Both the position numbers and the translations under genes were made by a program. A stretch of DNA of 44,733 bases, filler included, from Jimgerdemannia flammicorona (taxonomy: Eukaryota), in the NCBI GenBank assembly GCA_003990765.1. It is 2 parts of 2 records of this genome, joined end to end, with 100 filler letters (N's around TTAATTAATTAA, not from the genome) between each part and the next. Parts side by side here need not be neighbours in the genome. Positions count along the whole stretch, not along the records: positions 22,418 to 44,733 come from RBNJ01001303.1; 1 more part is not named here. The stretch is one strand, 5' to 3'. A model generated the notes under the pieces. That model was given only the letters and a program-made list of their open reading frames with translations, did not search any database and was not told where the DNA came from. Shown here piece by piece: positions 4,516-44,045 of this stretch (position 1 is its first letter; each line of letters begins with the position of its first letter).

Positions 4516-6559
4516 ATGTTCACTATGACAAGACAAGGCACGGGCGGTTTCAAAGATAAACTGATTGGCAAGCTGTCCAACTCCCCACTGAACAAGGGAA
4601 AGACGACCACCACCACCACCACCACTATTACCCGCCCAGGCCAGAGCCCAGTAACAACGACCACCATTACCAGCAACCACTCAGGACACTCAAGCCCAGC
4701 ACCCCAACACCAGCACCAGCAGCAACAACATCAGCAGCAACCTCAGCAGCAACCTCAGCAGCAACCTCAGCAACATCAGCAGCAACCCCAGCAGCAGCCA
4801 AAGCCGGCCGCTCAGCAGCCAAAGCCGACCGCTCAGCAACCCAAGCCAACCGCTCAGGCGGCCGTTCAGCAGCCAAAGCCGGCCGCTCAGGCCGCCGCTC
4901 AGCAGCCAAAGCCTGCTGCTCAGGCGCCAATCCCGAAGGCCACGAATATCGAGACCGCGGAGGAGGTGCTCGAGGATATCGAGGATGCCATGGATCGCTT
5001 GAGGTACGGTATCACAAAGAATGGCTCGTGGCCAGATCGGGTCCCTGGGATCGAGCATTCCCAATCGGAGAGGTGTCCCTGACTAACCTCCAATACGATC
5101 TACTCACCTGATCCGCCACAGTAAATCAGGTACCATGGTTGAGAAGGGCTACGACAAGCCACTCAACCTCGCCGCCTACAATTTCGACCACACCGACGCC
5201 CACGCCCGCAAGTGTCCCAAGAAGGACGAGGCATCTATTTCCACACTCGCCCACTACCTAACCCACAAGTACACCGACCCTGTACACAAGTACCGCGCCA
5301 TCTTCGCCTGGATCGCAGACAACATCGTCTACGACGTCGCCGGATACATTGACCGTAAGCACAAATCCCAGGAGGTTGCGGACGTCCTCCGTACTCGCAT
5401 CGCCGTATGCCAGGGCTACGCTAATGTCTTCCAGGCCCTCTGCGAGGAGGCGAATCTCAACTCTTCCATCATCCGCGGCTTCTCCAAGGGCGAAGGCTCC
5501 CAGCCAGGTGATGGTCAACCCGTTGAGCACGATAAGGAAGGGAAGCCCACAGGTCACGCGTGGAACGCGATCGTCGTAAACCACCAGTTCCTTTTCGTCG
5601 ATTCCACGTGGGGCGCCGGTACAATTGAACACTCCAAGCGCGCGTTCACGAAGCGGTTCCAGGACACCTACTTCCTCACCCCCCCCAATAAGCTCATCTT
5701 CTCCCACTACCCCGCCGAAGCGAAGCACCAGTATCTCTCCCCCCCCCTCTCCGAGCACGACTTCCTCGCCCTCCCCTGGGTCAAGCCCCTGTACCACGAG
5801 TACGAGGTCCAGATTATCAAGCCCCGCCCGCGCAGCCCTGTCATCACCGCCCAAGACGATATCATCGACATTTATCTCGATATCGCAAAGATGCCCAAGG
5901 GCGGATCCTTGATTGGACAGTTTGTCAAGTTCGGAAAGGATGGAAGGTCCACCGAGGAGGTCAAAGGCGCAGTCATCGCGCAGAAGGCCCCGGAGTACGT
6001 CCACAAAAACGTTTTCTGGGTGCACGTCGTCTGCCCGGCCAAGGGCGATTACAGGCTCGACCTCGTGGTTGTAAAGGGCCCTAACGTGAGTATTTCCTGC
6101 TCTCATCAATTTGACTTGGCAGCTGCAAGTTTTTTCATTCTTCGCTCCCAAACTAAACCCTTCTCCCTCTCCTTAATCTCACAGCAACCCGGCCTCAGCT
6201 TCCTCACCACCCGCATCGTCAACAAAGGCAACGGCACGCACCCGCAAGTCCCCAATAGCTTCATCACCCCGATACCCATCACCATCCATGCGCCCCTCAC
6301 CGGCATCCTCAAGGCCTCCCAGCCCACCGTCCGCTTCACCTTGTCCGCCTTCGCCAAGGACGACAAAGCCCCCTCCAAGTTCATCATCCTCAACAAGGAC
6401 CAGAGCGTGCGCCACGATATTTCCAAAACCGGGCATGGCCAGGAGTTCCTCCGCTTCGAGGCAGAGTTCCCCATGATGAAAAAGGGTGATTACACTCTCT
6501 ACTACCAGACGGGCGCCGGCGGCTCGATGCCCGGTGTGGCCTCGTTCAAGGTTGTGTAA
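4516..6559 (+). CDS. Transglutaminase-like cysteine protease (kyphoscoliosis peptidase/Cyk3/Hillarin family) with Thr/Gln-rich N-terminus
   Basis: Introns at about 5004-5121 and 6086-6184. Motifs YRAIFAWIADNIVYD, AVCQGYA (Cys), HAWNAI (His) and VDSTWGAG (Asp). Confidence 0.88.
4705..4925 (+). repeat. Coding low-complexity repeats (QQQP and QQPKPAAQ units)
   Basis: Tandem CAGCAACCT and CAGCAGCCAAAGCCGGCCGCT units in exon 1 of the transglutaminase-like gene. Confidence 0.85.
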
Positions 6560-14266: not shown

Positions 14267-16882
14267 ATGAAGCGTGCCGCTGAAGACCCTCAATCCACCG
14301 AGCAGCAACAGCGCAAGCGCCCCGGTCCCTCCCCCTCAAACCCTTCCACACTCAACGGCTACGTCAACCGTAACGGCCACGATACCCCATTTCCACCGTT
14401 CTCCCCAGCCTCGGTTGCATCCCCGTCGCCGCAGCACCAGCAGATTCATACGGGTAACTTTAAGAAATTTGTGGGGTGCTCGAGATTCGACGACTATGAG
14501 CTGGAGGATAAACTGGGGGAAGGAACGTTTGGGTGAGTCGCAATGGGAATTCGGAGTAGCGAGGCAGGCTGCAGCATTCCTCTCTCTATCTCCTTTTTGG
14601 TTAGTGTCATGGAATTCGACCTGATCTCTAAACCTTCGCGCTGCAGGGAAGTACATAAAGCACGACGAAAGTCTACCGGCGAATTGGTTGCTTTGAAGCG
14701 TATATTGATGCATAACGAAAAGGACGGGGTAGGTCCACTAAATCCGCACAGGGTTTCCTTCTCGTCTCCTCTCCGAACGCCTACGGCAATATTTGGTTTT
14801 TTCTTTAACAACTCGACTCGTACCTAACTGAGTTTTCCCCAACACCTCAAGATCCCCATCACCGCCCTCCGCGAGATAAAGATCTTGAAGCAGCTGAGCC
14901 ACATCAACGTCGTTCCGCTGACGGACATGGCGGTGGAACGAGGTAGGACATGCCAACTATCTTAGACCACGTTCGATCGAAAACTTGTGCCCTGTCGCGC
15001 GCACAAGCCTAACGGTTCTTCAGGAACCCCATCCCACGTTGACAAGCACACAGGCGAACGCAAAGAGCGCCAACGCGGCTCCATCTATATGGTATTTCCC
15101 TACATGGATCACGACCTCACCGGCTTGCTGGAGAACCCTTCCGTTCCGAGCTTCCAGCCTCCGCAGGTGAAGCTTTATCTAAGACAGCTGCTGGAGGGGA
15201 CGACGTACTTGCACAAGGTGGGATTCATGCATAGGTTGATTGATCACGGAGTTTGGTTTCGGATCCGGGAAGGGTGTACGTGTGTGTATATGTGTGTCAA
15301 AGGATGTTGGGTGATGTTTATCACTTGCATCGACGTTAAAATTCCACAATGTTTGCTTTTGGGCCTTGCTGCTCATAGAACAAAATTCTGCATAGGGATA
15401 TGAAAGGTGCATCTTCACGTTAGACGAGTTCATCGATTTCCATTTTGTTACACAATTCACAAATCGCGACTCACCTATCTCCCTAATCACATCACAGCGG
15501 CGAACCTCTTGATAAATAACCAGGGCATTCTCAAGATCGCTGATTTCGGCCTCGCGCGCGGGTTTGACGAGCCGGGTAGGGACTATACCAATTGCGTCGT
15601 CACGCGGTGGTATCGACCGCCGGAGTTACTGCTGGGCGAGAAGAAGTACACGACGGCGATCGATTTGTGGGGAATAGGGTGAGTGGGTTCTTTCCATGGG
15701 ATGTTTTGTTTTCTGCGTTTTTTTTTTTTGTCTGAGACTCGGAATCTTGGTATATATTGTATGCCACTGTTTTTTTGCTATGAGGGAACTCGCATTGTCA
15801 TTTCCGCTTATCTATCCCATGTCACACCCTTCCCACGGAACTTCAGATGCGTTTTCGCTGAAATGCTGGCTGGTAAGCCCCTCCTCCCCGGCCCCTCGGA
15901 CCTCGACCAGTTGAAACTGATCTTCGACCTCTGCGGCACGCCCACGGAGGAGACGATGCCCGGATGGCGCAAACTTCCCGACGCGGATAAGTTCGACCCT
16001 TACAAGAGCACGGGCCCGCGCTCGAAAGGTATCGCCGAAAAGTTTGCGAAGTGGGGCCTACAGGCTGTTGACCTGCTCGAGAAACTGCTGATGCTCGACC
16101 CGGAGAAGAGGATTTCTGCGTTCAATGCCCTCGATCATGATTACTTCTGGACCCCCCCGATGCCCGCGGAGCCGAGCAGGTGAGTTGGGCGATGGGTTGG
16201 AGCCAGGCGGTTAATTTTTGAGAGGTATATGTTTGCCTCAGTTACACAATAATAACTGCGAACTCGCTGCGTATTGCCATCATTCCACTCTCGCGCATTT
16301 TCCCACATTACCAGTATTCCCGTCTACGAGTCGAGCCACGAATATGACAAACGCAAGGGCCGCGAGCGCCCCGCCGACAGCGCCGCACCCCAACAACCGT
16401 CCTATCCTCCAAACCTGGCCCGCGGCGCCTCCCAAACCCTCAACAGCGGCCCCTCTCATGGCAACAGGTACAACGGCGGTGGTGGTAGCGGTGCCGCCGG
16501 CCGCGGTGGCCGAGGCAATGACCACCACAACGGCGACTCGTACCGATATGGCGGCGGATCCAAAGACGACAGGGACCGTCGCGACTATCGCGATGGCGGC
16601 CATCATCGCGATGGACACCGAGAGAGGGAGAGGGATAGGGAACGGTATGGCGATAAGTATGGTGATAAGGATAAGGAGAAAGATAAGGACAAGGATAGGG
16701 GCCGCGATCGTAGTAGAGAATCGAGGGATAGGGAGCGTGGAGAGCGCGCAGAGAGTCAGAGTGCTTTATCTGCCACGTCGGGGTCGTCATCGCAGGCAGG
16801 CAGACCCGAGAGGCAGGTCCATGCATTACCGCCTAAACCGGCCACGGTCATGGTGCCGGCTCTGCCACCGCGGGGAGTTTGA
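14267..16882 (+). CDS. BUR1: Transcriptional cyclin-dependent kinase Bur1/CDK9 with RD/RE/Gly-rich tail
   Basis: Spliced motifs [67 protein letters not shown]. Confidence 0.9.
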
Positions 16883-22710: not shown

Positions 22711-24022
22711 GGCGTGGGAAACTATATTAGGTTTATGGAATCTCCAATGTCCGTGCAGGATATCGCCATCGCCGATTACCTGCATTTCCCAGTTTGGCCA
22801 TTTTCTCTGCCACTCTTTTCCTCTGTCGACAAACTTCGCCCCTTCCCGAACTTACTGCTGTCCCGGATCGCACGCTATCAACAGAATAACAAAGTACGAG
22901 CGGCTCGGCGTTTGTTATTGTCGAGCCACCTGAGCAGCCGAGATCGTCAGTTTCACTTTTTGATGCTTACGAAACATCCGAGACTTGAGCCAGGCCCACA
23001 AAGTGCAGAGAGTGTTGCATGAACTCCCCTTGCAACCGGTTTGCTTGTATTGCCCATATCGCGGGTGCATCATTCATGGCTCTAAATGTACCGCGGCAAG
23101 ACAGGGAGCATGCAAGGTTCGAAATTTACTATAGCAAAGATGTGTTACTGCACCTTCGAACATTCGCTAATGTAAGCTGTGTCGATGGATTTGGTGAACA
23201 TGGAAGCATGCGTTTCCCAGGCGTAAGCGAAGGGTTCATCTTTTTATTGTTCCGGAAAGGGATTGCAGGAACTAAGTTGCTGGCGTAGTCTACACGCTTG
23301 ATTGTTGAGATGCGACGGGTACTCAGTCGCTAGGAGTGGAGATACTGCTGAAACGCTGCTGCTTAGAGCTGGCGTCTTTTGAAACAAACCAACGCAGGGG
23401 AGCTGATACTAAGCTAAGGTTGCATAAGAGATGGTGCGGAAGGGAATTGACACTAAAATTGCATAAGAGATTTGAACTATGTTCAATAACTCTAACTTCT
23501 TTCCCAGGGCAAACGACGTGTACTCCGAAGGATTGATATCATCAAACTCATGTCATACGTGTATGACTATTTGTTATTGTGTGACCTAACACCAACCACA
23601 TCCGACTTAACAGAATAGGAACAAACCTGTTTTACAATAAATATATGAGATGATAACAGTTTTGTTTATGGGTATTGGACTTGTGTGTCGCCAACTCAAA
23701 TACTATCGTTTGGCACGCGTATAAATGTAGACATCAACGCACAATCGTGGCAGCATCTCAAACAATTACACCAAACAAGAAGCCAAGTGCTAATCTTTAT
23801 TCTTGAACTCCAAGCGAAAAGATGCCTGCGAAAATGCTCATCTTCAGCAAGGTATCTGACCGCTCAACATGCGGCGTGGCGACGAGATCGGAGGACCAAA
23901 CACAGACAAATCAAAATGCGTATACGAAGCATTCCTAATCACCGCAATCCTTACGGCGTACTCAACAACTTCACAATGGTCATGTTCACCCAGATTGCAA
24001 GCGTCGTGGCCCAGGACACACC

Positions 24023-24973
24023 GTGCATTCAATATCGACCCAATCTCGGCGGTTTTCTCGGTGTTGGCCATCAATGCCAACCATTTTTATGATGTTATGT
24101 TCCAGTGCGCCGGAATTTATCTGCCTATTTCTCATTCAGAGTATGTATGCTTTCTTTCGACTTCGGCAAGCTGGACTGGCACAATATCAGGCGGTACTGA
24201 TCGTACGGGGACAATTGATCCTCGCACACAGCACGGAGTACGAAAAATTGGAAAATTTCCAATACAGGAAAGAGATAGAATCTCGCCACATTGTCGACGA
24301 CAAGACTCTTGGGAGGATCGAATGCAAACAATATAATGATGTAAGCTGGTCACTGCAAAAACTGGAGTTAGTTCCCGCCGAAAACCTCATCAAGGCTCAA
24401 TCAGCGAGCTCGACAATAGGTCCCGTATTCGCATTGGTTCAGGCAGGATGGTCCCTTCTCAATGGGGTCGAACGACTGGTGCACAAGCAGGCGCTTTCAG
24501 GATTGGACGCAATCGGTTTGCAGTATAGTATATTGAGTATACTTACTGCAGCAGAGACAATCTTCATTCCAAATATTGGGCACGATTTCGTTCGCATCAT
24601 CAACGAGACCAAGCAAGAATCGCTTGGCCAAAATGTCTCTACAGTTGGTTCAGAAATCAGTATGATACACATCATATTACCTTTTACAATTTACGTGCTC
24701 GGTGCCTGGCTCCAAACGCAAGTGGATTTCCCTTCATATGCCATCCGGCTCGCCGTAATGGTGCTGTACCCAATACGAATTATAGTCATAATACTTTTTT
24801 TCGTTGATTTACTTACAAATGAAAAACTGGAAACAAGCTTTACTATTACTATTATTTTATTATTTTTGAATATCTGTACAACAATCGCTTGGATTGTCAT
24901 GTGCTCGATCGGGATCTCCAGACCAAAGATTCTTATGAAAACTGACGCAGCCTTCAACTGGCCACATTTGTAA
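24023..24973 (+). CDS. Intronless multi-pass membrane protein of unknown family; 5' end uncertain, possibly frameshifted
   Basis: 316-codon ORF with several hydrophobic segments. It starts on GTG, the first in-frame ATG is near 24074, and overlapping upstream frames look protein-like. Confidence 0.55.
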   Translation: MHSISTQSRRFSRCWPSMPTIFMMLCSSAPEFICLFLIQSMYAFFRLRQAGLAQYQAVLIVRGQLILAHSTEYEKLENFQYRKEIESRHIVDDKTLGRIECKQYNDVSWSLQKLELVPAENLIKAQSASSTIGPVFALVQAGWSLLNGVERLVHKQALSGLDAIGLQYSILSILTAAETIFIPNIGHDFVRIINETKQESLGQNVSTVGSEISMIHIILPFTIYVLGAWLQTQVDFPSYAIRLAVMVLYPIRIIVIILFFVDLLTNEKLETSFTITIILLFLNICTTIAWIVMCSIGISRPKILMKTDAAFNWPHL

Positions 24974-28059: not shown

Positions 28060-31000
28060 ATGTCCACTCCCAACCGTCTCCAGGAACTACTAGCTCGACT
28101 CAAGCCCTTCCACGATCTGGACAGAGTTCATCAAACAGAAATTTTAGCATGGAAGAGTCGCTATTCTTTTAGTGAGCAAACACTCCGTGCCTGTCTCAAC
28201 ACGTTGGACGTGCCGCAGCTGGAGCCATACCTTGCCTGGATTGAGCCCGGTCTATTCACCGAATTTAAACAGCTTGCCGAAGGCGGATTTGCCAATGTTT
28301 ACCAAGGAAGCGTTCCTTCAGGTTATGGTTATATACCCCATGAGGTGGCTGCCAAAGAATTGAAGAAATCGATGGTTACCGAGGTGAGATATCATTGGGG
28401 TAATATACATATTATTTTCACACCACCTAGCTTATTAGTAACCTTGCCATGTACTCATCCCACCAAATCAGTTGGTGTTGAATATCTATTTGAGTCGCTG
28501 TGGAAATAATACCAATGACACCCCCACAATGGATACCATTGGGTTGTCAAGACATCCAGAAACTGGAGAGTATCTGATGATTATGCAATTTGCTGATATG
28601 GGAACTCTTGAGAAGCAGCCATGTGAACAAGATAGTGATTGGTACACTGCTTTGACATATGCTACAAAACTTGCCAGTCGTTTAGCTAGTCTTCACGACC
28701 TGGGCTTCAGCCACCAGGATCTCCATGCCGGAAACGTAGTATTCCACAAGTCCCGCACCACTCTCTTGATCGACGTTGGACTTAGTCGAAGTGTAGAAGA
28801 CGCACATTCTGAGGATGGTGTCTATGGCCGTATAGCATACTTCCCTCCAGAGATCTTCGAGAGAAAGCAGTATACACAGAAATCGGACATCTACTGCCTG
28901 GGAACGCTATTGTGGCAACTGATCGCCGGTGTTCCGCCACAAGGCGTCGCTTCGGTGGCCGTCTCCAGTAAACCGGATGGGCTTCGCGAGGAGCTTATTC
29001 CTGGTGCGCCAACGGCATTTAATAATATCATCAAGAGCTCCTGGCATCTCGACCCTGATCAGCGACCGAGCGCTTGTGAAATCTACAATCAGTTGATTGA
29101 ATGTGCAGCTGGTTTAGTTGGAATTTCTCCCGTCTCCCAGCTGAATACAGAAGACCAAATTCTTGGATTTCTGGCATTATCCCCGGTGCCATTTTCACCC
29201 GAGGTACAATCGTTCATCGCCGCGCGATCGGCCACCTATCGGAACGATACGAAATCCAGTAACAGTGACGTTTTCAATTTTGCCGGGTCCCCGGCAAGCG
29301 GGTGCCACGCCGGAAGCAAATTCTACACTCCTGTGCAGCTCAACCAAATCACGGAACAACACTCCCGAACGGGACTTGTCACACTCGGGCGGCAGCTGGA
29401 TCCAGGTATGTAGCGCGCAGGCGCACGGTTCAGACAGTTTGTGTTCTTGATTCATGTCTCGTCGTTAAGGCAATATTGGCAAGTGAGAGATCGCGATAAT
29501 AGCCATAGAGAAAATCACCAGTTAAAACTTGTTATCCTTCATCTCTGTCTAGGGGAAAACATTGGCACAGACGAGCCCCACGCCCTAGCCGAATCTCTGA
29601 AGCAGAACACAACAATGAGCAAGACGAAAGTTTCGAGTATGTCTGAACTGGGTGACCATTGCTTTCAGCTGTGCGATAAGGCCAAGCTAATGATCTATAC
29701 ATGTTTGCTACTCTCCTCATCTTTAGGAAGCTTGGTGGACGACAAGGGGACCGGCGTCCTAGCCGAGTTACTGAAGCAAAACGCAACACCGAATCAGCTG
29801 AACCTCTCTGGTATGTGTGAATTGTAGGAAACGTACACACTTTTTACGACTGTGAGATTTAATTAGACACAATCTCTGTGTGTTCGCTCATCCCTGTTTA
29901 TCTTTAGGGAAAGTCTTCGATCATAGGGAATCACGAATTCTTGTCCAGTTTCTGAGAGAGAACGAAAACCTGACCAAGCTCAATCTCAGCGGTATGTCAG
30001 CATTATATCAATTACTGTTTACAGTAGCATGATGGGATCCAGACCATGCTTTGAGTAATGCTCTTAATCTATGTTTATGTTTTTTAGGCAACAGCATCGG
30101 CTTATTGTTATGCCGTGCTCTAGCCGAATGGCTAAAGCTGAACACGACCTTGACCGAGCTGAATCTCAGTAGTATGTTGAAGCATTGTATGCGGCTGAGC
30201 GATAAAGTAGGCTAACTATATGTGCATATTCGATCATTTTATAGATAATGAGATTGGCGAGCATGGAGCACGCGCCCTAGCCGAGTCTCTGAAGCAGAAC
30301 ACGACCCTGACCGAGTTGAATCTCCAAAGTATGTCAGAACTGTGTAGAGTATTTTGTGAGGCTACGTGATGGAATCAAGTTAATGATATTTGGCTATTTG
30401 CATATCCCTGTCTATTTTAAAGATAATGTTATTTGTGACCGGGGGACAAGCGCCCTATCCGGGTCTCTGACGCAGAATACCGCCTTGACCAAGCTGAACC
30501 TCGAACGTATGTTGAACTGTGTGAAGCATTGTGTGCGGCTGCATGATGAAAGCAGGCTAATGATGTGTGCATGTTCGCTCATATCTTGTATTTTATAGTA
30601 AATGAGATTGGCGAATATGGGGCACGCGCTCTAGCCGAGTCTCTGAAACAGAAAACATCCTTGACAGAGCTAAATCTAGAACGTATGTCGGAAGCATTGT
30701 GTGTGGCTGCATGATGGAATCAAGCTAATGATCTTTGGGTGTTTGCTTGTCCCTTGCTCATTTTAAAGATAATGATATTGGCAAGCAGGGGGCATGCGCC
30801 CTAGCCGAGTCTCTTAAGCAGAACACGACCTTGACCAAACTGAATCTCGGACGTATGTGGGAACTTTTGAAGCATTATATATATGCGGCTGCATGATGAA
30901 AACCGGCTAACAATATGTGCATGTTCACTCATCCCCTGTTCATTATATAGATAATGAGATTTTTGGGCATGGGACACGCGCCCTATCCGAGTCTCTGAAG

Positions 31001-32556
31001 CAGAATATGAACTTGACTGAGCTGAATCTTAACGGTATGTCAGAATTGTGTGAAGCATTGTGTGCGACTGCGTGATGGAGTTAAGCTAAATATCTTTGCT
31101 TGTTCTCCTATCTCCTGCTCATTATAAAGATAATAATATTGGCGAGAGAGGGGCACGCGCCCTAGCCATTTCTCTGAAGAAGAACACAGCCTTGGCCAAG
31201 TTGAATATCTCCTGTATGTATGTCAGAAAGCATTGTGTCTGACTGCATGATGGAAGCAAGTTGACGATCTTTGCACGTTCACCCACCTTCTTTTCATTTT
31301 AAAGATAATAATATTGGTGAGAAAGGAGCACGCGCCCTAGCCGAGTCTCTGAAACAAAATACGACCTTGATCGAGCTGAATCTAAAAGGTATGTCGGAAC
31401 TCTGTGAAGAATTGTGTGCGGCTGCGTGATGGAATCATACAAATGCTCTCTGCATGTTCGCTCATCCGCTAGAGAATACGATTGGAAAGGCGGGGGCACG
31501 TGCCCTAGCGGAGTCCTTCAAACAGAACACGAGCTTGACCAAGCTGAATCTTGAACGTATGTCGGAACTGTGCGAAGCTTGTGTGCGGCTACATGATGAA
31601 ATCGGGCTAAAGATACGCATGTGCGTATCCTCTGACCCTATGTTCATTTTAAAGGGAATGGAATTGGTGAAGAGGGGGCACACGCTATAGCCGAGTCTCT
31701 GAAGCATAACACGACCTTGACCGAAGTGAATATCGAAGGTATGTCGGAACTGTGTGAAGCATTGTGTGCGGTTGCATGAAGAAATTAGGCTAACGATACG
31801 CATCAGCGTGTTCGCTGACACTATGTTGATTTTAAAGGGAATGGAATTGGTGAAGAGAGGTTACACGCCATAGTCGAGTCTCTGAAGCATAACACGACCT
31901 TGACTGAAGTAAATATTGAAGGTATGTCGGAACTGTGTGAAGCATTGTGTGTGGTTGCATGAAGAAATCAGGCCAATAATACGCACGTGTGCGTTCGCTG
32001 ACCCTATGTTCGTTTTAAAGAGAAGAGAATTGGTGCCGCGCCAGCCGCCACTCCGATTATGGGTGACCCTCTCCCCCACCATCGGCTACGGCAGTCGCCC
32101 ATCCGCAGGGTCCGCTTTGTGCTCGATAACTCCACCGCATACTTCCGTTACGACATCGTTCGTGAGGGCTACGAAGTCTTCTACGTCCTAGACCAAACGC
32201 CGCTCGAAGTCCTGCAATCCATCAGAGACAGTGATGTAGCGGTGCTTACCCTTGACCAGAGCTACGCTAATTTTTCCAGGACTTCCGACAGGAAACCCGT
32301 CCTCATCCTCCCGCCCATGTTCCTGCCAATCGACGAAAACCGCAAAAGAAAGCGAGAATGGTTGGCACAGCTGTTGAGAAGCCATGATCAGATCGTATTG
32401 CTCCGCATGTTCCCGATACGCACATTCACGGCTCATTCACTCAGGCATGGGTGGTGGAGGCTGGAAGAAGTAAGCGGGACGTTTATTCCGCCGCCGGTAA
32501 ATTCTACTAAATCAGTTCTAGCTAATAGGATGCTAGGGCGTTCTCGAAGACTATAG
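28060..32556 (+). CDS. TKL-type kinase + 14 RI-like (28-aa) LRRs + C-terminal PIN-like domain, ~989 aa, 17 exons
   Basis: Exons 28060-28383, 28472-29405, fourteen 84-nt exons from 29553 to 31921, and 32021-32556 splice into one stop-free 2970-nt frame. Kinase motifs AEGGFANVY, VAAK, HQDLHAGN, DVG, YFPPE, SDIYCLG. LRR consensus NxIGxxGARALAESLKQNTTLTxLNLxx. Confidence 0.9.
29553..32020 (+). repeat. Tandem exon+intron repeat array, 14 units of 157-183 bp
   Basis: Each unit is an 84-nt exon plus a 73-99-nt intron starting GTATGT. Most introns share GAAGCATTGTGTGCGGCTGCATGATG-like cores. Confidence 0.95.
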
Positions 32557-32769
32557 AGGCAAATGAGGCAAAGTACGAGGAATACGAACGATAGAATGTA
32601 GGATGTTAGGTGAAACACTTGATAGTTTACGTACTCTTTTATTCGAAACGGCGAACAGTCTCATCTGAAATTTCAGCAAAGCTGACATTGCCTTTTGGCC
32701 AATAAACGGAGTGATAAAACTGGATTCGTTTACCTCACTTCATGCCTTACTCAGACTTGCGAGTATAGC

Positions 32770-35700
32770 GTACATCTATAAGATTTATTAGATGTTTTTG
32801 ATAATTATTTCAGAAGAGTAGAGTGTGAAATCCTAAAAAAAAAATCAATTTGATATCTTAACTATCAACTATTATACAGTTGCTTTTAAGATAATTAGCA
32901 ACTTAGAATTTAATCTAGTTGATATCTTCTACTGTCAGATATATGATATTTCAGAGAGTAACTTCTTAAAGATACATATATAATGTAATCAGAATGAATA
33001 ACTTCAAAGAAGATATAAATAAAGATACAATTATATGATCTGGTAATAATTTCATAAATGAGTTATATATAATAAAAAGTTAAGTAAGATAAATAATATA
33101 AAAATACTATAGTAAGTTATTATTGAGATGACAACTCAATATATAGGTACATGACTTTATATGCCATCAGTATTATATCATTTATCATTAATATGTAAAA
33201 TATACAACTTATATATTTTGAATAAATTGCTTCTTTTATTCATTATAATAATTACTTAACTCATTATATAATACTATGACTGGTGTTTTGAAATAAATTT
33301 ATTCCAATATACTAACTGGTATTTTAGAACAAAACTTATCTTAACAAATATAAATTATCTGAAATAGTCAAGTATTAGTTAGTTAAATTATCATATATTA
33401 GTATCAATACAAATAAATACTCTAATAGTAAGTCAGTAATAAATCAGTCTTAATTTAGTATAGTTCTTTATATAGCTAAATAGTTTAGAGAAGATGCTAT
33501 ATCTAGATGCTCTGATCTCAATACCTTTTTATATATCACAAGTACTCTTTTATTATAACAGTGACCTCAGAATGATGATATCAGCATAGGAGACAGCCTT
33601 TCCTTACAAGCAACCAGATCATTTTGACAAAGTAACTTGGGGCTCAAGCTAATCTAAATAGTACTTCATCTTGCTTAAGATTAATAACACTATCTTCAGA
33701 ATACCCAAGTATCCCAAACTCAAGGAATAACTCAGAAAGTAAATCAGAACCAAAATCAGAACTAGAAGACAGTAATGATGAAATGGCCACCTCAATATCA
33801 ATCTTTGTAAAATATCTAGAAGATCTGAGAGAATTTCTTAATAGAATTGAAGAAATAGAAGATCTATAGAATCTCTCTATCTAGAGAAAAGTTATCATTT
33901 TTAAGGCCCAACTCAGAGAACCTATCAAGGAAATTTTTATGAATAGATGCACTTTGAGGACCTTAGTTTATATCAATTACCTCAAGATATACTTACTATC
34001 TATATATTAAACTAGAAGATTGACCAATACCTCCAGACCCTTACTCTCAGTAACTTCCAAGCCCTATCAGTTCTCTTGCCTCAGTTCTGAGAAACCAATA
34101 GAATCTGTCTTCAATAAATTCAAATATATGTATGAAGAAAACCTTATCTTGGCAAAACATCTACTGCAGATCTATCAACTATAGGCCTACTATATAATTA
34201 GTCAACTACTACAAAACCTTTTATCTTCAGAACAGACCAATATCTATAATACCACTGGTATGTTCTGAAGAAATACTATTATAGCTATAACTTCCAAAGA
34301 ATAACAATATCTATCTATCTAAACATTATCAATCATATTGAAGTTCTGTTCTCTGAGGAAGAAGAAGAGCTATTAAAATGAAAAAAATTCAGATACTAAA
34401 GAATATAATAGTACAGGTATTATACTTAAGATATCTATATATACTATAATAATGACTAAAGAACAGTCTGGAGACAGATTACTCTTTAATAGAGACTGAT
34501 GTAATAAGAGAATAATATAGTATATTCAGATGATATAAATACTCAGCATAGTATAGTTATCTATTTCTAGTTACCTATATACTCTTACTTATAATTAGTA
34601 AGATACTAAATAATATTTATTGATTTATATTCTAAGGATATACCTGTATCTATTAGATACATCTGTATCCATTAGACAAATCTATACTTATTAGATATAT
34701 CTGTATCTAGTAGATATACCTGATCACTCTCTATTCTCAAAATAGTATTACTGTATATTCTATAGTTAGCTATATAGTAACCAGATAGTAATTATAACTA
34801 TATAGAATATCTCAGAGATAAGAGTGAATAATCCTCAGTCTGAAATTGAAATAAAAAGGCAAAAGATAAGCCTGCTTACTATACTTTAAGAAATATATCT
34901 TTGAAGAGCCATATGATCCAGAAAGAATTATAATACTTAGGAGAAATACCAACTATAAAGCAACTTTAGAATATTGTGAGCTAGAGGTTCTTTTTACTCT
35001 AGTCCACTTTCTAATACAAAGAATTTGTCTTACATAACCAGTCTAGTATAAGATATACTTTTATATTAAATATCCATTTATATAAATAAAGTAGTTTTCA
35101 ATATAACTATATTAGAAACCTACTGCTTAAGAAAGCTAAGTTATTATTTAAAACAAGCTACTAATTTAGAAGAATCTGCACTATTTAAGTTAATCTACCA
35201 ATTCAGAAAGTTTTACATTCTCTAAATAGTCTGCCAAATTGTCAGCTCACTACTAATAAAGAATACTATCTAGAATCATATAGAAATTATATTCTTTTTT
35301 TGAATAAGATTATTGTACAGAAATTACATACTTTTGAAAATAGGATCATTATATAGAAATTATATAAGAAAATTACTCATACCATATAAAGATCATCTGC
35401 TATCATTTATTTCAAAAGAATCATCCATATCAAAGAACTATCTCAATTAGAAAATCATACAAATTATCCACAATAAGAATAGGAGAGCTTGTTCAGATAT
35501 TTGAATTTTTCTATTATATAGCTAAATATCAGAATATTAGGAAATATAGAACATTTTATTACTTTTTAATAAAGTAACTAGAGGCTTAAGCTAATTTACA
35601 TAGTAGTCTCAAACTTGTAATTTGCCTTTATTAAGCTGATATATTACAATACTCAGTACAGAGACTATTTAAATAAATTAGATAATTATTACTAAATATA

Positions 35701-36783: not shown

Positions 36784-36841
<58 letters not shown>

Positions 36842-39607
36842 GTCACTTGGACTTTCCTTTATTACCTCAATCTATAATAATAATACAATATCACCTGCAT
36901 TCCCTCAACCGATATCCTTCAGATCTCCCTCTCTACCCTCTATCCCCTCCTGTCAAAGGATAACTTGGTCACTCACTACTTGAATCCTCTCTCTACTTTT
37001 CTGGCAAATACAATTCACCAAACTTCAGTGGCTCCCCCCACCTGGTCCCCACCCTCTCTACCAGCCATTCCCAATATACCACCCTAGTCCCAATTCCAAC
37101 CTGCTGGCTCTCCTTAAATATATATAACCAATGCCTGGCCAGCCCAACCCAAATTGCTAGAGCTCAACCCAGGGTCAACTATTCATCTCCAACCCCTCCC
37201 ACTAGCCTTTAGCGGAGCTCTCCCCATCTCCTCCTGTCCCCTCTCACCAGGGCCTACAATCCTAACCAGTCTGCAATATGGTGCCAAAACTCCCCTAAAA
37301 TGTCACACTTGCCAAGCCAATGTTTAGATATTTGTAGCACTCCCCCTTCCTGTCCAACATCCAAACATTCCTCACACTCAAATGTGCCATCTGCCACCAA
37401 GTGTCCAGACTGATAGTTCAACATCATATTCCTCCTTAGAAACTGCCACCACACTACTCAGAACTTGGGGGGAAGCCACCACATCATATGCTTGCTCTAA
37501 GGCCAAAAACCATTCCAGTCCCACTCCTTGCCAATCCCTACCCTCTGCCATGCCTCAGGCCACAGGTCCCCCCCTAAGCTCGACATATACTCCATTCCAT
37601 TACCAAGCTGGAAATCCTCCACCAAAGTACCATCCAGCAAAAGCCTGTCCCATCTCCACATCTGCAGTCTCCAATCTTTCTCTCCCTCAGCCCCCTACCA
37701 CCAAAGTCCAATTCTCCTAACACCATCCACCACCCCCCACCAAAAGCCCCTATACTGCATCCTCTTGCTCCCCTCCAGGGCCACCAATGCAAACAGATCG
37801 CCAGATGCTCTACAGGGGGAATACTGGACCTCCCATACCCTCTGCATGAGTGGAACCCACTCCTGGCCCCTTAACTAGCTTGTCATCATCAGCCACCATG
37901 CTTGCAAGCAATGAAGGCATTTGGTAAAGTCCACCAAGCCTAGCCTGCCTTTGTCCACAGATAGGGTCAGAACCTCCCATCCTATCTGACTTCACTGCCC
38001 AGCCCAGATCCATGATCTTGTCATCTTCAAAAGTCACCTGACCACCCATGCTGAGAAGTCCAGATGATAACCCACATACCACAGCTTCAGCAACCAATAT
38101 ACATTCAGCACCATCACCCTTTCTGCCAAGGATATATACTGATCACCCCACCATAAGTATATATCACACCATACTAGGAGTTGCTGTTCCCACCAAGCAC
38201 AGGGCAGGAGAGACCCATATATCAAAAATTAGATCCCCAGGTAGTGAACTGGCTCTCCTGCTGGCACCACTATTCCAATCATGTCACCACTAACTATTCT
38301 GCCATCTAGCACCAGAGTCTTGTACTTGTGCCAATTGAGTCTAGCACCAGAGCCCCTCTCATACCATTTCACAGTCCTCCTCAATTTCTCCACATCTGCC
38401 AGCATACCCAGTCTGACCACCATATCATCTGCAAAGGCCCCCACTTTCCAATTAATCTTCAGAATGTCCAAACTCCCAATTTGATACTGGATCCTGTCCA
38501 ATAGGGGCTTTAAGTAGAGGATATATAAGATGGGTGACAAAGGGTCACCTTGTGGCACCCCCTGACTAAGTGGAAAAGTTACACTCTTATGTCCATTGAT
38601 TATCAATACTGCCTGACTGTTTTCCAAAAGACTGATTAGTGACCTCCTGAACTCTAGAGAAACACCACCTATTTCAGCACCCTCTCCAGCCAGATCCTCC
38701 TTACTCTGTCATATGTCTTCTCCTGATCCAGAAATACTAATCTGCCATTAACCCTGGCCACCTGAGCCCCTTCAATCATACCATGGACCCAGGCTGTCTC
38801 ATCTTGGATCAACCAACCACCAACAAATCCTCTCTGCTCTACTCCCAGTACTTGCTAAGCAATCCCCTATAGTCTGGTCACTAAGACCTTTGTCACCAGC
38901 TTGCAGTTTATGTCAAGGAGTATGATCAGTTCCAGTTCTTCCAATCTTCCCTTCTCCCCTTATCCTTATAGATCAAGGAGACCAGCCCTAGACACTGGAC
39001 CCCAATCCAGGTCTCAGACTGAAGAATCTCATCATATATGGCCATCAACTCCTCCAATACTACCTCCACCCCAGCTATCTTTTTCCAAAATCCTAGAGAA
39101 GTCCATCCTCTCCCAGAGCTGTCCCCTTACTTGTTGAAACCAGAACCTCACAAATTTCCAACCCCCTCACTGGGTCTCCCAGAGTCTCCAGACCCATTGC
39201 TGGGTCTAGATGCCAATCCTCCAACTGCCTTTCAATGTCTGAGGCATCCTCACCCCCTTCTTCCTCACTCCATAGGTGCCCCCAGTAGGACCTTAACAAT
39301 CCCAGAATGGCTGGAGTCCCTACCACTATCTCCCCATCCTCATTTAAGAGACCATCCCACTGCTGTTTAGTTCTCCATGCCTGTAGCATCTGAAATAAGA
39401 TATGGGTCTTTCTCCCTCCTCCAACCCTTGGCACCTCAGCCTTACTACCATCCCCTTTAAGTTAATCTCCTCCTCCAATTATATCACTTCCTTAAGCTTC
39501 TCGACTTCCTTTTGAATCTACATAATATGCTAGTCTGCCACCTTCCAATCCTCAAGCACTCCTGCTCATCTCTCCAGAAGTACTGCCAGTCACTATGAAG
39601 CCCAAAG
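36784..39607 (-). mobile_element. Degenerate non-LTR retrotransposon (L1/Tx1-like ORF2), 5'-interrupted, with poly(A) tail
   Basis: Minus-strand RT motifs GEDGL, DQEKTYD, GVPQGDPLSPILY and AFADD, a Cys/Trp-rich C-terminal region (CEEC), multiple stops, and a 55-nt T run at 36784-36838 forming the poly(A) tail. Confidence 0.88.
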
Positions 39608-40711: not shown

Positions 40712-41029
40712 ACTCGTCTCAATTGTCCATTTCATCTCAATCGTCCATCTCATCTCAATTGTCTGTCTCATTTCAATCATCCATCTCATCTCAATCGTCC
40801 ATCTCATCTCAATCGTCCGTCTCATCTCAATTGTCCATCTTGTCTCAATCATCCATCTCATCTCAATCGTCCGTCTCGTCTCAATCATCCATCTTGTCTC
40901 AATCATCCATCTTGTCTCAATCGTCTGTCTCATCTCAATTGTCCATCTCATCTCAATTGTCTGTCCTGTCCTGTCCCATTATCTCAATCGTCCATCCAGT
41001 CCCATCTCATTTCAATTGTCCGTCCAGCC

Positions 41030-41065
<36 letters not shown>

Positions 41066-41250
41066 GCAATAAATATAGAGGAGATACCATCCACACCCCG
41101 TCTTGTCTCAATCATCTATCTCGCCTCAATCGTCCATCTTGTCTCAATCATCCATCTCGTTTCAATCGTCCATCCCGTCTCAATTGTCCATCTCATCTCA
41201 ATCATCTGTCTTGTCTCAATCATTCATTCTATCATCTCAATCGTCCATCC
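40712..41250 (+). repeat. 18-bp minisatellite CTCATCTCAATCGTCCAT in the left arm, two blocks split by a (TA)n module
   Basis: Tandem copies are directly visible and produce the spurious 6-aa-repeat ORFs in the track. Confidence 0.92.
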
Positions 41251-41335: not shown

Positions 41336-43471
41336 ATGCCAAGACTAGCTAAACAAAGCCAGCACTTATAAGTTTTAAGATATCATAAACTTGAGGAAGA
41401 AATTATAGGTATGTAAATATTATTATATAAATATTAATAATATTAATAATATATTAATTATAATTCTAATTCTAATTATAATATAGATGATAATAATAAG
41501 AGAGTAGAAGATGATGAAGATGAAGAAGAAGATGAAGATGATGATGATGAGAGAGAAGAAGATGATGATGAGAGAGAAGATGATGAGGAAGAAGAAGAAG
41601 ATGATGATGATATAGATAAAGATGAGAATACAGATGAAGATGAAGATAGTGATGATGATGAAGATGATAAAGATGATGATGAAGATGATGATGATGACAA
41701 AGATAAAAAAACTGATAGTAGCTGGGAACCTCACATCACTGCACTTAAAGTTCATATGAAGAGTTTGGAGAATCTATCTTTAAATTATATTCTAAAATAT
41801 CATCATATATCACAATATATGGTATTTAGAAATAATAATAGAAGTACTTCTCAAGCTAGTCAACTGATTGCAGAAAGTATCAACAAAGGCTTATACTATG
41901 CAAAGCTTTTGAGAAGATAGATACAAAATTGGATTGACAACAAAACTCTTCCTATTTCTCAGCAAGGAAGACATGCTAAGAAGAAAAGTCTTCTTAAAGA
42001 TAAAAACATTAAACTTGCAGTTCAAACTTATTTAGAAAAGAACAAGTTTACTGCTACTCCAAAATCTCTTAAAAAACATTTAGAAAAAGAGATTTTGTCA
42101 ACATCAGCAGAATTTATAAAAATTCATGAAGATACAGCAAGAAGATGGATGCTAAAGATGGGCTATACTTATAGTAGGCGCAGAAAAGGACTTTATGTTG
42201 ATGGTCATGAAAGAGATGATGTTAAAGTATCCCGTGAATAATTTTTAAAGCAGATGGCTGACTGGAAACCATTTATGATTCAATATGATGAAGATTTTCA
42301 ACCATTATAATATAATATTTCTCTTGGACAACAACATATTCTGGTGACACATGATGAGGCTAATTTCAATGCTAATGATGATCTAAACTATGGATGGGGA
42401 CCAAAAGGACAATTTCCTTTAAGACAAAAAAAGTAGAGGTGCTAGTATAATGGTCAGTGACTTTCTACTGGATACTGTTGGAAGGCTGGCTATATCTGAG
42501 GAACAATATAAAGATATTAAGAGTCCAAAGCCTTCAAGAGAAGCTTATTGTCTACTTGAAATTGAAAAAGCTAAAAAAGATTATTGGACTGGAAATGATC
42601 TAATAGATCAGGTATGTATATTTATAATAATAATTAAATTTATTAAACAGATAAAATAAAAATACTTATAATATAAATTAATATTATATTATTAGATTAA
42701 AACCAAAGCTATTCTAATTTTCAATACTATTCATCCCAACTATATGGCAGTATTTGCATTTGATCATAGTCAAGGATATTCAATGTATGTATCAGATGCT
42801 TTATTTGCTCACAAGATGAACCTTGGACCTGGTGGAAAACAGCCACTTATGAGAACTACAAAGTTTAACAATATCACTCAAGAAATGGTATTTTTATCAA
42901 AATATGAAATTGTTAAACTGCATGGTAAAGCAAAGGGCCTGAAATAAGTACTTGAAGAAAGAAATCTTTGGAGAGAAAATTTAAGAAGAAAATGCAAGGA
43001 AAAATGCAAGAAAGAAGATTGTTGTGCTGTACAAATTCTATCTCTTCAAGAAGATTTTAAAGCACAGAAGCCACTTATTCAAGAAGTTATTAAAAAAATA
43101 GGTCATAAATATATTTTTTATCCTAAGTTCCACTGTGAACTCAATTATATTGAATATTTTTGGAGCAGTGTAAAAAGGTATTGCAGGTATGTAATATATA
43201 TTATTAAATTATAATTATAATTTAATAATAATGTTAATTATTATATTTATTAATTATAATATTTAGAACTCATTGCAATTATACATGGACTGGACTGAAG
43301 CAGAATATTCCAAAAGCTTTGGCCTCTGTTGATCTTATTACAATTAGAAAATATGCATATCATTCACAAAAATATATGAATGCATATCAAAAAGGACTTG
43401 TATTGGCTGATGCAGAAAATGATGTTAAAAAATATCATTTATATCGCCATGTCTCTCAAAATGTTATTTAG
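41336..43471 (+). pseudogene. Intron-containing DDE transposase, inactivated by stops
   Basis: Motifs LYVDGHERDDV, VTHDEANFNAND, VFAFDHS, MNLGPGGKQP and FYPKFHCELNYIE. Three AT-rich GTATGT..AG introns start near 41409, 42612 and 43187. Acidic D/E tract at 41487-41700. In-frame stops at e.g. 41369, 41918, 42239 and 42945. Confidence 0.85.
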
Positions 43472-43611: not shown

Positions 43612-44045
43612 AGAACGGATGATTGGGACAGGATGGATGATTGAGATCCCAATTGTCCATCCATCTCATCTCAATCATCCATCCCATCCCAATCGTCTGT
43701 CCCTCTTGTCTCAATCATCTGTTCTGTCCCAATCGTCCGTCCGTCTCATCTCAATCGTCTGTCCCATCTCATGAGACGGATGATTGAGAGATGGATGATT
43801 GAGAGGAGATGAACAATTGAGAGGAGATGGACGATTGAGAGGAGATGGACGATTGAGAGGAGATGGATGATTGAGAGGAGATGGACAATTGAGAGGAGAT
43901 GGACGATTGAGAGGAGACGGACGATTGAGAGGAGATGGACGATTGAGAGGAGACAGACAATTGAGAGGAGATGGATGATTGAGAGGAGATGGATGATTGA
44001 GAGGAGATGGACGATTGAGAGGAGATGGATGATTGAGATGAGACA
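43612..44045 (-). repeat. 18-bp minisatellite in the right arm, mostly inverted (GAGAGGAGATGGACGATT)
   Basis: Reverse complement of the left-arm unit, with a forward-oriented block at about 43648-43770. Confidence 0.92.

Follow-up and report, generated by a model that had tools for sequence, protein, structure and literature searches.

A candidate chimeric gene of Jimgerdemannia flammicorona joins a kinase and leucine-rich repeats to a DUF5615-like tail

Introduction

In a stretch of DNA of 44,733 nucleotides (nt), filler included, from the fungus Jimgerdemannia flammicorona (assembly GCA_003990765.1), hereafter the window, one gene at 28060-32556 reads a protein kinase, an array of leucine-rich repeats (LRRs) and a small C-terminal domain, here called the tail, in a single spliced frame. 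Does such a gene encode an evolved receptor with a built-in effector, or are we looking at a gene assembled recently from existing parts? An initial annotation of the window had favoured the former, a cytosolic non-self receptor in which LRR ligand binding controls a kinase and a nuclease-like effector. The reading that we come to prefer, as the probable one by a modest measure, is a young chimeric variant, specific to its lineage, of the kinase-LRR family known from Mucoromycota, with a captured tail of the DUF5615 type that is divergent and probably reduced in catalysis. The host of this gene is a Mucoromycotina (Endogone-like) fungus.

Besides the window itself, we used contigs of the one public run found to share words with the gene (5% of sampled words), called X1, whose label "RNA?" is guessed; the statements on joints and matching pieces of X1 cover the 15 of 215 joints and the 8 of 1325 pieces that were listed.

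An intact frame of 17 exons

The gene model was rebuilt from the sequence. Sixteen strong donor sites (GTATG or GTGAG) lie within 28060-32556, each paired with an AG acceptor, and the resulting plus-strand gene has 17 exons and a coding sequence of 2970 nt for 989 amino acids (aa) and a stop, with no internal stop in the frame and with GT..AG at 16/16 introns. The exons measure 324 nt, 934 nt, exactly 84 nt in fourteen cases and 536 nt for the last one. A stop codon stands immediately 5′ of the ATG of exon 1. In the last exon the frame stays open over 184 codons (32002-32556), and we estimate the chance of this at ~2e-4 for such a composition. The parts of the gene are as follows.

28060..28383, plus strand: exon 1, conserved N-terminal region and first part of the kinase N-lobe, with the VAAK lysine and with EGGFANV, which resembles a glycine loop
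28384..28471, plus strand: intron 1, GT..AG, 88 nt
28472..29405, plus strand: exon 2, kinase catalytic core (HQDLHAGN, DVG, PPE) and conserved linker of ~110 aa
29553..31921, plus strand: LRR array of 14 units, fourteen 84-nt phase-1 exons, from 29553-29636 to 31838-31921
29636, 29810, 29991, 30171, 30328, 30506, 30682, plus strand: ends of the first seven LRR exons in the exon model
30852, 31034, 31213, 31388, 31556, 31738, 31921, plus strand: ends of the last seven LRR exons in the exon model
31922..32020, plus strand: intron 16, seen by alignment to be a copy of the LRR introns before it
32021..32556, plus strand: last exon (17), with LRR stub, putatively captured segment, tail and TAG stop
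32473..32556, plus strand: C-terminal extension and TAG stop, poorly conserved, predicted local distance difference test (pLDDT) score 47-54; the X1 paralogue is homologous as far as 32498

An extra intron in the tail (32470-32536) was considered and rejected: the unspliced reading (..EEVSG..PP..) fits the C-termini of homologues, and the X1 paralogue, which is collinear up to 32498, also speaks against it. No transmembrane-like segment was found in the 989-aa protein (maximum Kyte-Doolittle mean over 19 residues, 1.34), and its N-terminus is not hydrophobic. The initial annotation had described an intact 17-exon frame, a protein of three parts (kinase, 14 LRRs and a terminal domain, which has 177 aa) and the lack of a signal peptide or transmembrane helix; in all these respects it holds.

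The first 16 exons belong to a Mucoromycota family

Exon 2, taken alone, matches PF07714 (PK_Tyr_Ser-Thr) with an E-value of 7.4e-24 (84.9 bits, cut-off 23.1) and PF00069 with an E-value of 6.2e-20 (72.1 bits, cut-off 31.7). Among kinases of solved structure it comes closest to EGFR, FAK, Abl and MLK4, of the tyrosine kinase and tyrosine kinase-like groups (TK/TKL; E 1e-16 to 1e-12). The residues first cited as evidence for a kinase are indeed present, VAAK in exon 1 and HQDLHAGN and DVG in exon 2, which also holds PPE. Aligned to HRDLAARN and DFG of EGFR, the catalytic loop is seen to be of the non-RD type, with Q replacing R. The glycine loop reads EGGFANV, and a glutamate (in VTE) at the border of exons 1 and 2 is not found in the closest relative of the protein.

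This relative, the best in the databases, is the hypothetical protein BC937DRAFT_86469 of Endogone sp. FLAS-F59071 (769 aa; P0004), with LRR_6 (1.3e-33) and PK_Tyr_Ser-Thr (1.9e-22) domains. Its residues 1-106 are 47% identical to exon 1, its kinase is 63% identical to exon 2 over 100% of the exon, and its LRR_6 region is 50-69% identical to the LRR exons. Both proteins have a common N-terminal region, a TK/TKL-like kinase with H-x-DLH-x-GN and DVG, a linker and LRR_6 repeats of the ribonuclease-inhibitor (RI) type, but the chain of P0004 stops in the LRRs, at 769 aa, without a tail. A kinase followed by RI-type LRRs is therefore an existing, poorly studied family of cytosolic proteins of Mucoromycota, to which the first 16 exons belong.

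The literature that we searched on kinases of Endogone and Jimgerdemannia holds nothing on a kinase-LRR family, and no account was found that joins Rhizophagus, tyrosine kinase-like and leucine-rich repeat; the supplements of PMC10507103 and PMC5499597 may list related genes. In the consulted portion of PMC10507103, Glomeromycotina and Mortierellaceae are described as having kinase genes and LRR genes that even went over to their Mollicutes-related endobacteria.

One symmetric exon for each repeat

Each 84-nt exon encodes one RI-type repeat of 28 residues (xNxIGxxGAxALAESLKQNTTLTxLNL). The introns between them are 90-99 nt long, GT-AG and all of phase 1, so that every LRR exon is symmetric. 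In the three single exons scanned (3/3), LRR_6 (PF13516) gives partial matches (E 0.005-0.011) that stay below the cut-off because the Pfam repeat spans the exon borders. Identity between LRR exons ranges from 0.46 to 0.90, the highest value being that of the last two, and tandem periods of 354 and 183 run across the array. The codon split at each exon junction stands for the residue that varies most within the repeat (N, L, H, H, D, Y, E, R, G and others). Symmetric exons would let units duplicate, drop out or be skipped with the frame kept.

The X1 contigs contain many paralogous LRR arrays in which the units adjoin without the ~95-nt introns. In 12/12 joints with listed bridging letters, the number of these letters is exactly the sum of two distances, one up to the predicted end of the first exon and one counted from the predicted start of the next, and LRR exons are thus joined at the predicted borders. 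These joints fit spliced mRNAs of paralogues and confirm the one-repeat-per-exon borders, rather than a transcript of the gene itself.

The summed depth of X1 contigs reaches tens of thousands over some LRR exons (71,502 in the bin 30132-30295) and 15-1000 over the kinase, and 314 of the 987 contigs placed on the gene fit two places. RI-type LRR genes thus appear to form a very large and highly represented family in the X1 organism or organisms, far beyond the gene studied here.

The tail is real coding sequence

A HMMER search of 1.84 billion representative proteins found six homologues of the tail (E 1.4e-22 to 1.5e-10, 36-44% identity). All six are stand-alone proteins of 146-228 aa that start with Met, and they are known from Logan assemblies only, as singletons. 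With the copy in the window the family counts seven known members and is eukaryotic. Further searches did not enlarge it: a profile search of a word-indexed collection recovered just 2 family members, both already known, metagenome scans gave 117 pattern matches with 0 confirmed, and an exact 29-mer from the tail had 0 matches in metagenomes.

A contig of X1 of 1374 nt (depth 240) matches 32035-32498 with ~93% identity and 31 substitutions, and carries an in-frame insertion of 6 nt relative to the tail. Among the 27 listed of these 31 substitutions, 12 are synonymous and 15 non-synonymous (110 synonymous and 352 non-synonymous sites), which gives a ratio of non-synonymous to synonymous rates (dN/dS) of ~0.39 (binomial p 0.015). 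Purifying selection has thus acted on the frame along one or both of the branches. Taken together, the homologues and this pattern of change lead us to regard the tail as real coding sequence.

For two of the homologues, P0012 and P0016, the longest contig given has 8829 nt in each case; the two could be adjacent paralogues on one contig, and the small gene family, too, would then duplicate in tandem.

The tail is related to DUF5615

The region of interest is the following.

32104..32472, plus strand: DUF5615-like (Mut7-C-like/PIN-like) domain, tail residues 28-150, from homologues, the AlphaFold 2 (AF2) model, HHalign and Foldseek

The Pfam model DUF5615 (PF18480) is found in 3/7 members of the tail family in a common register, with E-values of 4.4e-4, 0.02 and 0.021 and scores of 20.5, 15.2 and 15.1 bits, all under the gathering cut-off of 23.8. 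In the ESM-Atlas the neighbours of the tail include DUF5615, PIN_10 and Mut7-C clusters (0.80-0.83, as leads only). In the AF2 model the core, residues 30-150, reaches pLDDT 83-94, and the first Foldseek match of this model in BFVD is a phage DUF5615 protein (E 1.1e-3, 134/141 residues, TM-score 0.52 on the target). The tail family profile had 0 matches to PDB sequences at E up to 10, and Foldseek of the model against the PDB gave nothing at E <=1e-3.

A direct comparison was made with HHalign, between the seven-member tail alignment and 28 DUF5615 domains taken from genomes of cyanobacteria and Chloroflexia. It yielded a probability of 95.0% in local mode (70 columns, P 3.7e-8) and of 95.3% in global mode (104 columns). 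The reversed DUF5615 profile gave 0.1%, and 20/20 column shuffles of DUF5615 gave at most 4.3%; with 22 classical PIN domains (PF01850) the tail reached 2.7%.

In prokaryotes, the DUF5615 gene lies directly behind a DUF433 gene, overlapping or abutting it, in 15/15 loci examined (L122-L158), and DUF5615 and Mut7-C models hit two loci in common. Pfam DUF5615 is presumably the same as COG4634. According to the parts consulted of Matelska et al. 2017 (PMC5499597), the Mut7-C-like group (COG4634, PIN_10, PIN_16) has a reduced PIN-like fold and comprises potential toxin-antitoxin toxins, COG4634 and PIN_10 being DUF433-linked toxin-like clusters; the 15/15 pairing agrees with that description. We consider it supported, from profile and model comparisons, that the tail is divergently related to DUF5615, which is the toxin-like component of DUF433-DUF5615 modules in prokaryotes and belongs, among PIN-like domains, to the Mut7-C-like branch. 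The name "DUF5615" was not found in the literature searched. No DUF433 partner for the tail was found in the window, a profile built from the 15 DUF433 proteins of these loci giving a best E of 3.1 over the six frames.

One protein encoded upstream of DUF5615 also has a ribbon-helix-helix domain like that of the ParD antitoxin, and some cyanobacterial genomes have up to 21 DUF5615 matches.

The tail resembles DUF5615 in a homology of ~105 residues, an Asp after strand 1, a T-x-D after strand 3 and an equal order of α and β elements. It differs by lying below the Pfam cut-off, by being eukaryotic, fused to a kinase-LRR protein and without a DUF433 partner in the window, and by an extra C-terminal helix pair and β-hairpin (residues 107-149).

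A sharp breakpoint in the last exon

Where does the tail come from? The features that bear on this are listed here.

32021..32034, plus strand: LRR-derived stub, encodes ..KRIG, its last bases homologous to the LRR unit; the period-183 array of Tandem Repeats Finder (TRF) ends at 32035
32035..32058, plus strand: first 24 nt of the putatively captured copy, reads AAPAATPI, probably former 5′ untranslated region
32580..32748, plus strand: 3′ flank homologous to the X1 paralogue, second piece of the 1374-nt contig

Three independent marks place a breakpoint at 32034/32035. First, in an alignment of the last three intron-exon units, LRR-unit homology spans intron 16 and 14 nt of exon 17 and stops at 32034. 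Second, the period-183 tandem array stops at 32035. Third, the match to the 1374-nt X1 contig begins at 32035, where the contig has 147 nt of upstream sequence of its own. An in-frame ATG at 32059, 24 nt past the breakpoint, is the likely start of the former small gene, and the alignment with the stand-alone homologue P0016 opens beside this ATG, with residue 2 of P0016 at 32068. Since 32580-32748 also matches the X1 paralogue, the captured segment would include the region of the 3′ untranslated region.

The simplest reading of these sequences is that the fusion is young and that it joined a captured duplicate of a stand-alone gene to a truncated LRR unit. The 90% identity of the last two LRR exons and the ~93% identity of the captured copy to its paralogue indicate a recent event. 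The original 3′ end of the kinase-LRR gene was lost, and the captured copy retains hardly any of the DNA that once preceded it, so that the copy, if expressed at all, would most likely be expressed as a fusion. With the 3′ end lost and the signals of intron 16 like those of the neighbouring introns, a spliced fusion transcript is the structural expectation.

A retrocopy origin of the captured segment was also weighed: the homology ends at 32748, and the contig runs 305 nt further. An A10 run lies at 32834-32845, ~90 nt beyond this end.

Nuclease or binding domain?

Four acidic positions are conserved among the 28 DUF5615 domains: D6 (27/28), D41 (26/28), D59 (21/28) and D62 (25/28). The tail family keeps D35 (7/7), T76 (7/7) and D78 (6/7), and in the AF2 model D35 and D78 directly follow β-1 and β-3, as acidic residues of PIN domains do. 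P60 (0/7 acidic) stands at the position of D41, and S80 (2/7 acidic) at that of D62. The glutamate of a family-specific LPE motif (5/7) is a proline in the copy of the window. With half of the conserved acidic set lost, the tail would not be a canonical PIN RNase.

The consulted part of Busetto et al. 2024 (PMC11347159) assigns to the MUT7-C domain of MUT-7/EXD3 a role in RNA binding and partner recruitment, not in catalysis. Considering this role and the acidic losses, we infer that a binding or regulatory role of the tail is more likely than canonical RNase activity.

Weighing the readings

How, then, would the gene have arisen, and what could it do? In the reading that we prefer, the kinase-LRR family would grow by tandem duplication of symmetric one-repeat exons, and in the lineage studied here the 3′ end would have been swapped recently, a truncated LRR unit being joined to a copy of the small gene at 32034/32035. 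Splicing of intron 16 would yield one frame of kinase, LRRs, linker and tail. The LRR solenoid would bind a partner and regulate or localise the kinase, and the tail, hanging on a disordered linker of ~27 residues, may serve as a binding module for RNA or protein or, if a nuclease at all, be a weak or atypical one.

Several observations weigh against one or another part of this reading. The in-frame, stop-free junction has by our estimate a chance of ~0.2, and could be luck. The junction 31921|32021 is absent from the 15 listed X1 joints, which says nothing either way. Only two short, exon-internal X1 contigs belong to the gene itself (lengths of 170 and 174 nt with 0 and 2 differences, respectively, in exons 1 and 2), at depths of 5 and 3, against 240 for the stand-alone-like paralogue. 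The signal of purifying selection, which rests on 27 of 31 substitutions, could lie wholly on the branch of the paralogue. The tail alone has no Pfam match at E up to 1, and its AF2 model comes from an alignment of 7 sequences only. The PDB rows listed for the tail by VIA-align are generic flavodoxin-like folds without a PIN nuclease, by which a PIN-like fold is not excluded. DUF5615 itself reaches 30% only against classical PIN domains in HHalign, so the label "PIN-like" rests on the literature. Finally, the kinase activity of exons 1-2 is not assured, as the RD arginine is lacking and the αC glutamate is uncertain.

Some of these points would fit a humbler history, in which a promoter-less copy of the small gene came by accident to lie behind a truncated kinase-LRR gene, in a fortuitous frame, and is now neutral or decaying and without selected function. 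A sharp breakpoint 24 nt upstream of a presumed ATG and a junction that chance could leave open in frame are what such an accident would produce. The gene adjoins AT-rich DNA with a reverse-transcriptase fragment and satellites, its copy of the tail is without the LPE glutamate of the family, and the paralogue rather than this copy stands at high depth in X1. No fused kinase-LRR-tail protein was found among the 1.84 billion representative proteins, and a search for the tail in proteins longer than 310 aa scored none of 808 candidates. However, all 989 codons and 16 splice sites are intact, and the tail shows synonymous change above expectation and an in-frame indel. We regard accidental juxtaposition as rather unlikely, while giving it serious weight.

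The proposal with which we started, a cytosolic non-self sensor in which an LRR ligand switches the kinase and frees an active PIN-like RNase, would gain from an architecture that is real and cytosolic, from the homology of the tail to toxin-like PIN-family domains of toxin-antitoxin-like modules (as treated in the consulted part of PMC5499597), from the placement of D35 and D78 and from paralogue transcripts that suggest a greatly expanded LRR family. Part of it can be kept. The PIN-like label is borne out through profile homology to DUF5615 and the literature, the tail is nuclease-related, the gene is not a conserved housekeeping gene, and no second example of the architecture, then unrecognised, was found among the proteins searched. 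A working nuclease is not supported, with P60 and S80 at two of the four acidic positions and proline in place of the LPE glutamate, and the RNA-binding role published for MUT7-C points away from catalysis. Support is likewise lacking for an evolved system of sensor, kinase and effector: a single fusion is seen, it is young and looks like a recent gene capture, the protein has no KEN domain and no NTPase domain, and expression and activity are predictions from sequence. We therefore find this model improbable, and the mechanism of a defence receptor speculative. A variant in which a toxin-type DUF5615 of prokaryotes, domesticated by Endogone-like fungi in the form of a small gene family, would serve as death or RNA-targeting effector of an NTPase-less innate-immune receptor, the LRRs sensing a non-self ligand and restraining the tail and the kinase relaying the signal or licensing its release, is quite doubtful.

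It could also be asked whether the tail is unrelated to nucleases and is instead a receiver-like (CheY/flavodoxin-like) phospho-acceptor or small-molecule binder, a target of the kinase in cis. Its best PDB structures are indeed flavodoxin-like, the asparaginase 8uoo_A (Z 7.1, root-mean-square deviation (rmsd) 3.9, 122 residues aligned) and the FixJ receiver 1d5w_A (Z 6.7, rmsd 2.9, 93 aligned), receiver domains in general lying at Z of about 6. According to the note of the tool itself, Z <8 is the usual background for flavodoxin-like folds, and no Response_reg match was found by Pfam in the tail family. What decides here is HHalign, in which the tail reaches 5.9% with 25 receiver domains (Response_reg) against 95% with DUF5615; the receiver reading is rejected as highly improbable.

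Genomic surroundings

The initial annotation had placed the gene beside a transposon graveyard, and the downstream flank agrees with this: it is AT-rich (GC content 0.24-0.43) and contains satellite arrays and the following fragment.

38232..38708, minus strand: reverse-transcriptase fragment (RVT_1 E 1.3e-13) in the AT-rich downstream flank, context outside the gene

Arrays of the 18-nt satellite CTCATCTCAATCGTCCAT and of its reverse complement GAGATGGACGATTGAGAG lie at 40713-41249 and 43646-44043 in opposite orientation and flank ~2.4 kb with a highly acidic open reading frame (41450-41920); they may mark where a large mobile element ends on either side. In the same flank, 55 T follow one another without interruption at 36784-36838.

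The upstream half of the window has a GC content of about 0.5 and ordinary genes (1160-1732, 5087-6556, 14966-16183), namely a fragment resembling Spc25, a transglutaminase-core/KY-like protein and parts of another kinase gene, which is CDK-like. An open frame of 344 codons with hydrophobic stretches at 23939-24973 has no Pfam match. The kinase-LRR gene thus stands at the border of gene-rich DNA and a repeat-rich flank.

Significance

Proteins with a kinase and RI-type LRRs are plentiful in Mucoromycota and almost unstudied. The locus described here shows how such genes are built, with one repeat per symmetric exon, growth in tandem and C-terminal modules gained by juxtaposition. The tail family forms a tiny branch, found in eukaryotes, of a toxin-like PIN-family domain of bacteria, and invites the questions whether it came from bacteria and which role the domain has in a fungal cell. 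Should the fusion be expressed and its tail act on RNA, the gene would provide one of the rare cases in fungi of an intracellular sensor that is based on LRRs and carries its own effector; if the effector-receptor reading were true, the protein would be a three-part fungal defence protein of undescribed kind. If the fusion is not expressed or not active, the locus would be a clean natural case of a new chimeric gene at birth.

Comparison with known systems

The closest precedent for the tail at the end of a larger eukaryotic enzyme is MUT7-C, a Mut7-C-like domain at the C-terminus whose non-catalytic role is the one discussed above. By the consulted account of that protein, MUT7-C differs in its zinc ribbon with four Cys, which is missing from the tail, and in its partner enzyme, which is an exonuclease and not a kinase. 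In Pfam scans, moreover, the tail family matched DUF5615 and not PF01927.

What the protein has in common with RNase L and IRE1, enzymes with a repeat or lumenal sensor, a kinase fold and a KEN RNase, is the overall plan, in which a single chain unites sensor and kinase fold with a domain related to nucleases. However, its tail has no KEN match in Pfam (E up to 1) and is homologous to DUF5615, the kinase comes first and the repeats second, LRRs replace ankyrin repeats, and activation driven by dimerisation is unsupported for it. The comparison with these enzymes and with NOD-like receptors (NLRs), drawn in the initial annotation, is thus an analogy only.

Plant-type LRR receptor kinases are different too, as the kinase here is N-terminal and the protein has neither a hydrophobic N-terminus nor a transmembrane window. 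As for NLRs, no Pfam match to NACHT or NB-ARC was obtained on exon 1, exon 2 or the tail, and the linker between kinase and LRRs has ~110 residues; without an NTPase domain, the kinase-LRR protein is not an NLR. The consulted part of PMC12258605 describes fungal NLRs with other repeats (WD40, TPR, ANK, HEAT). The likeness to NLRs lies in the RI-type LRR array, comparable to that of the NLRC3/NOD type in animals, as the likely binding module, which can be expanded by one repeat with each exon.

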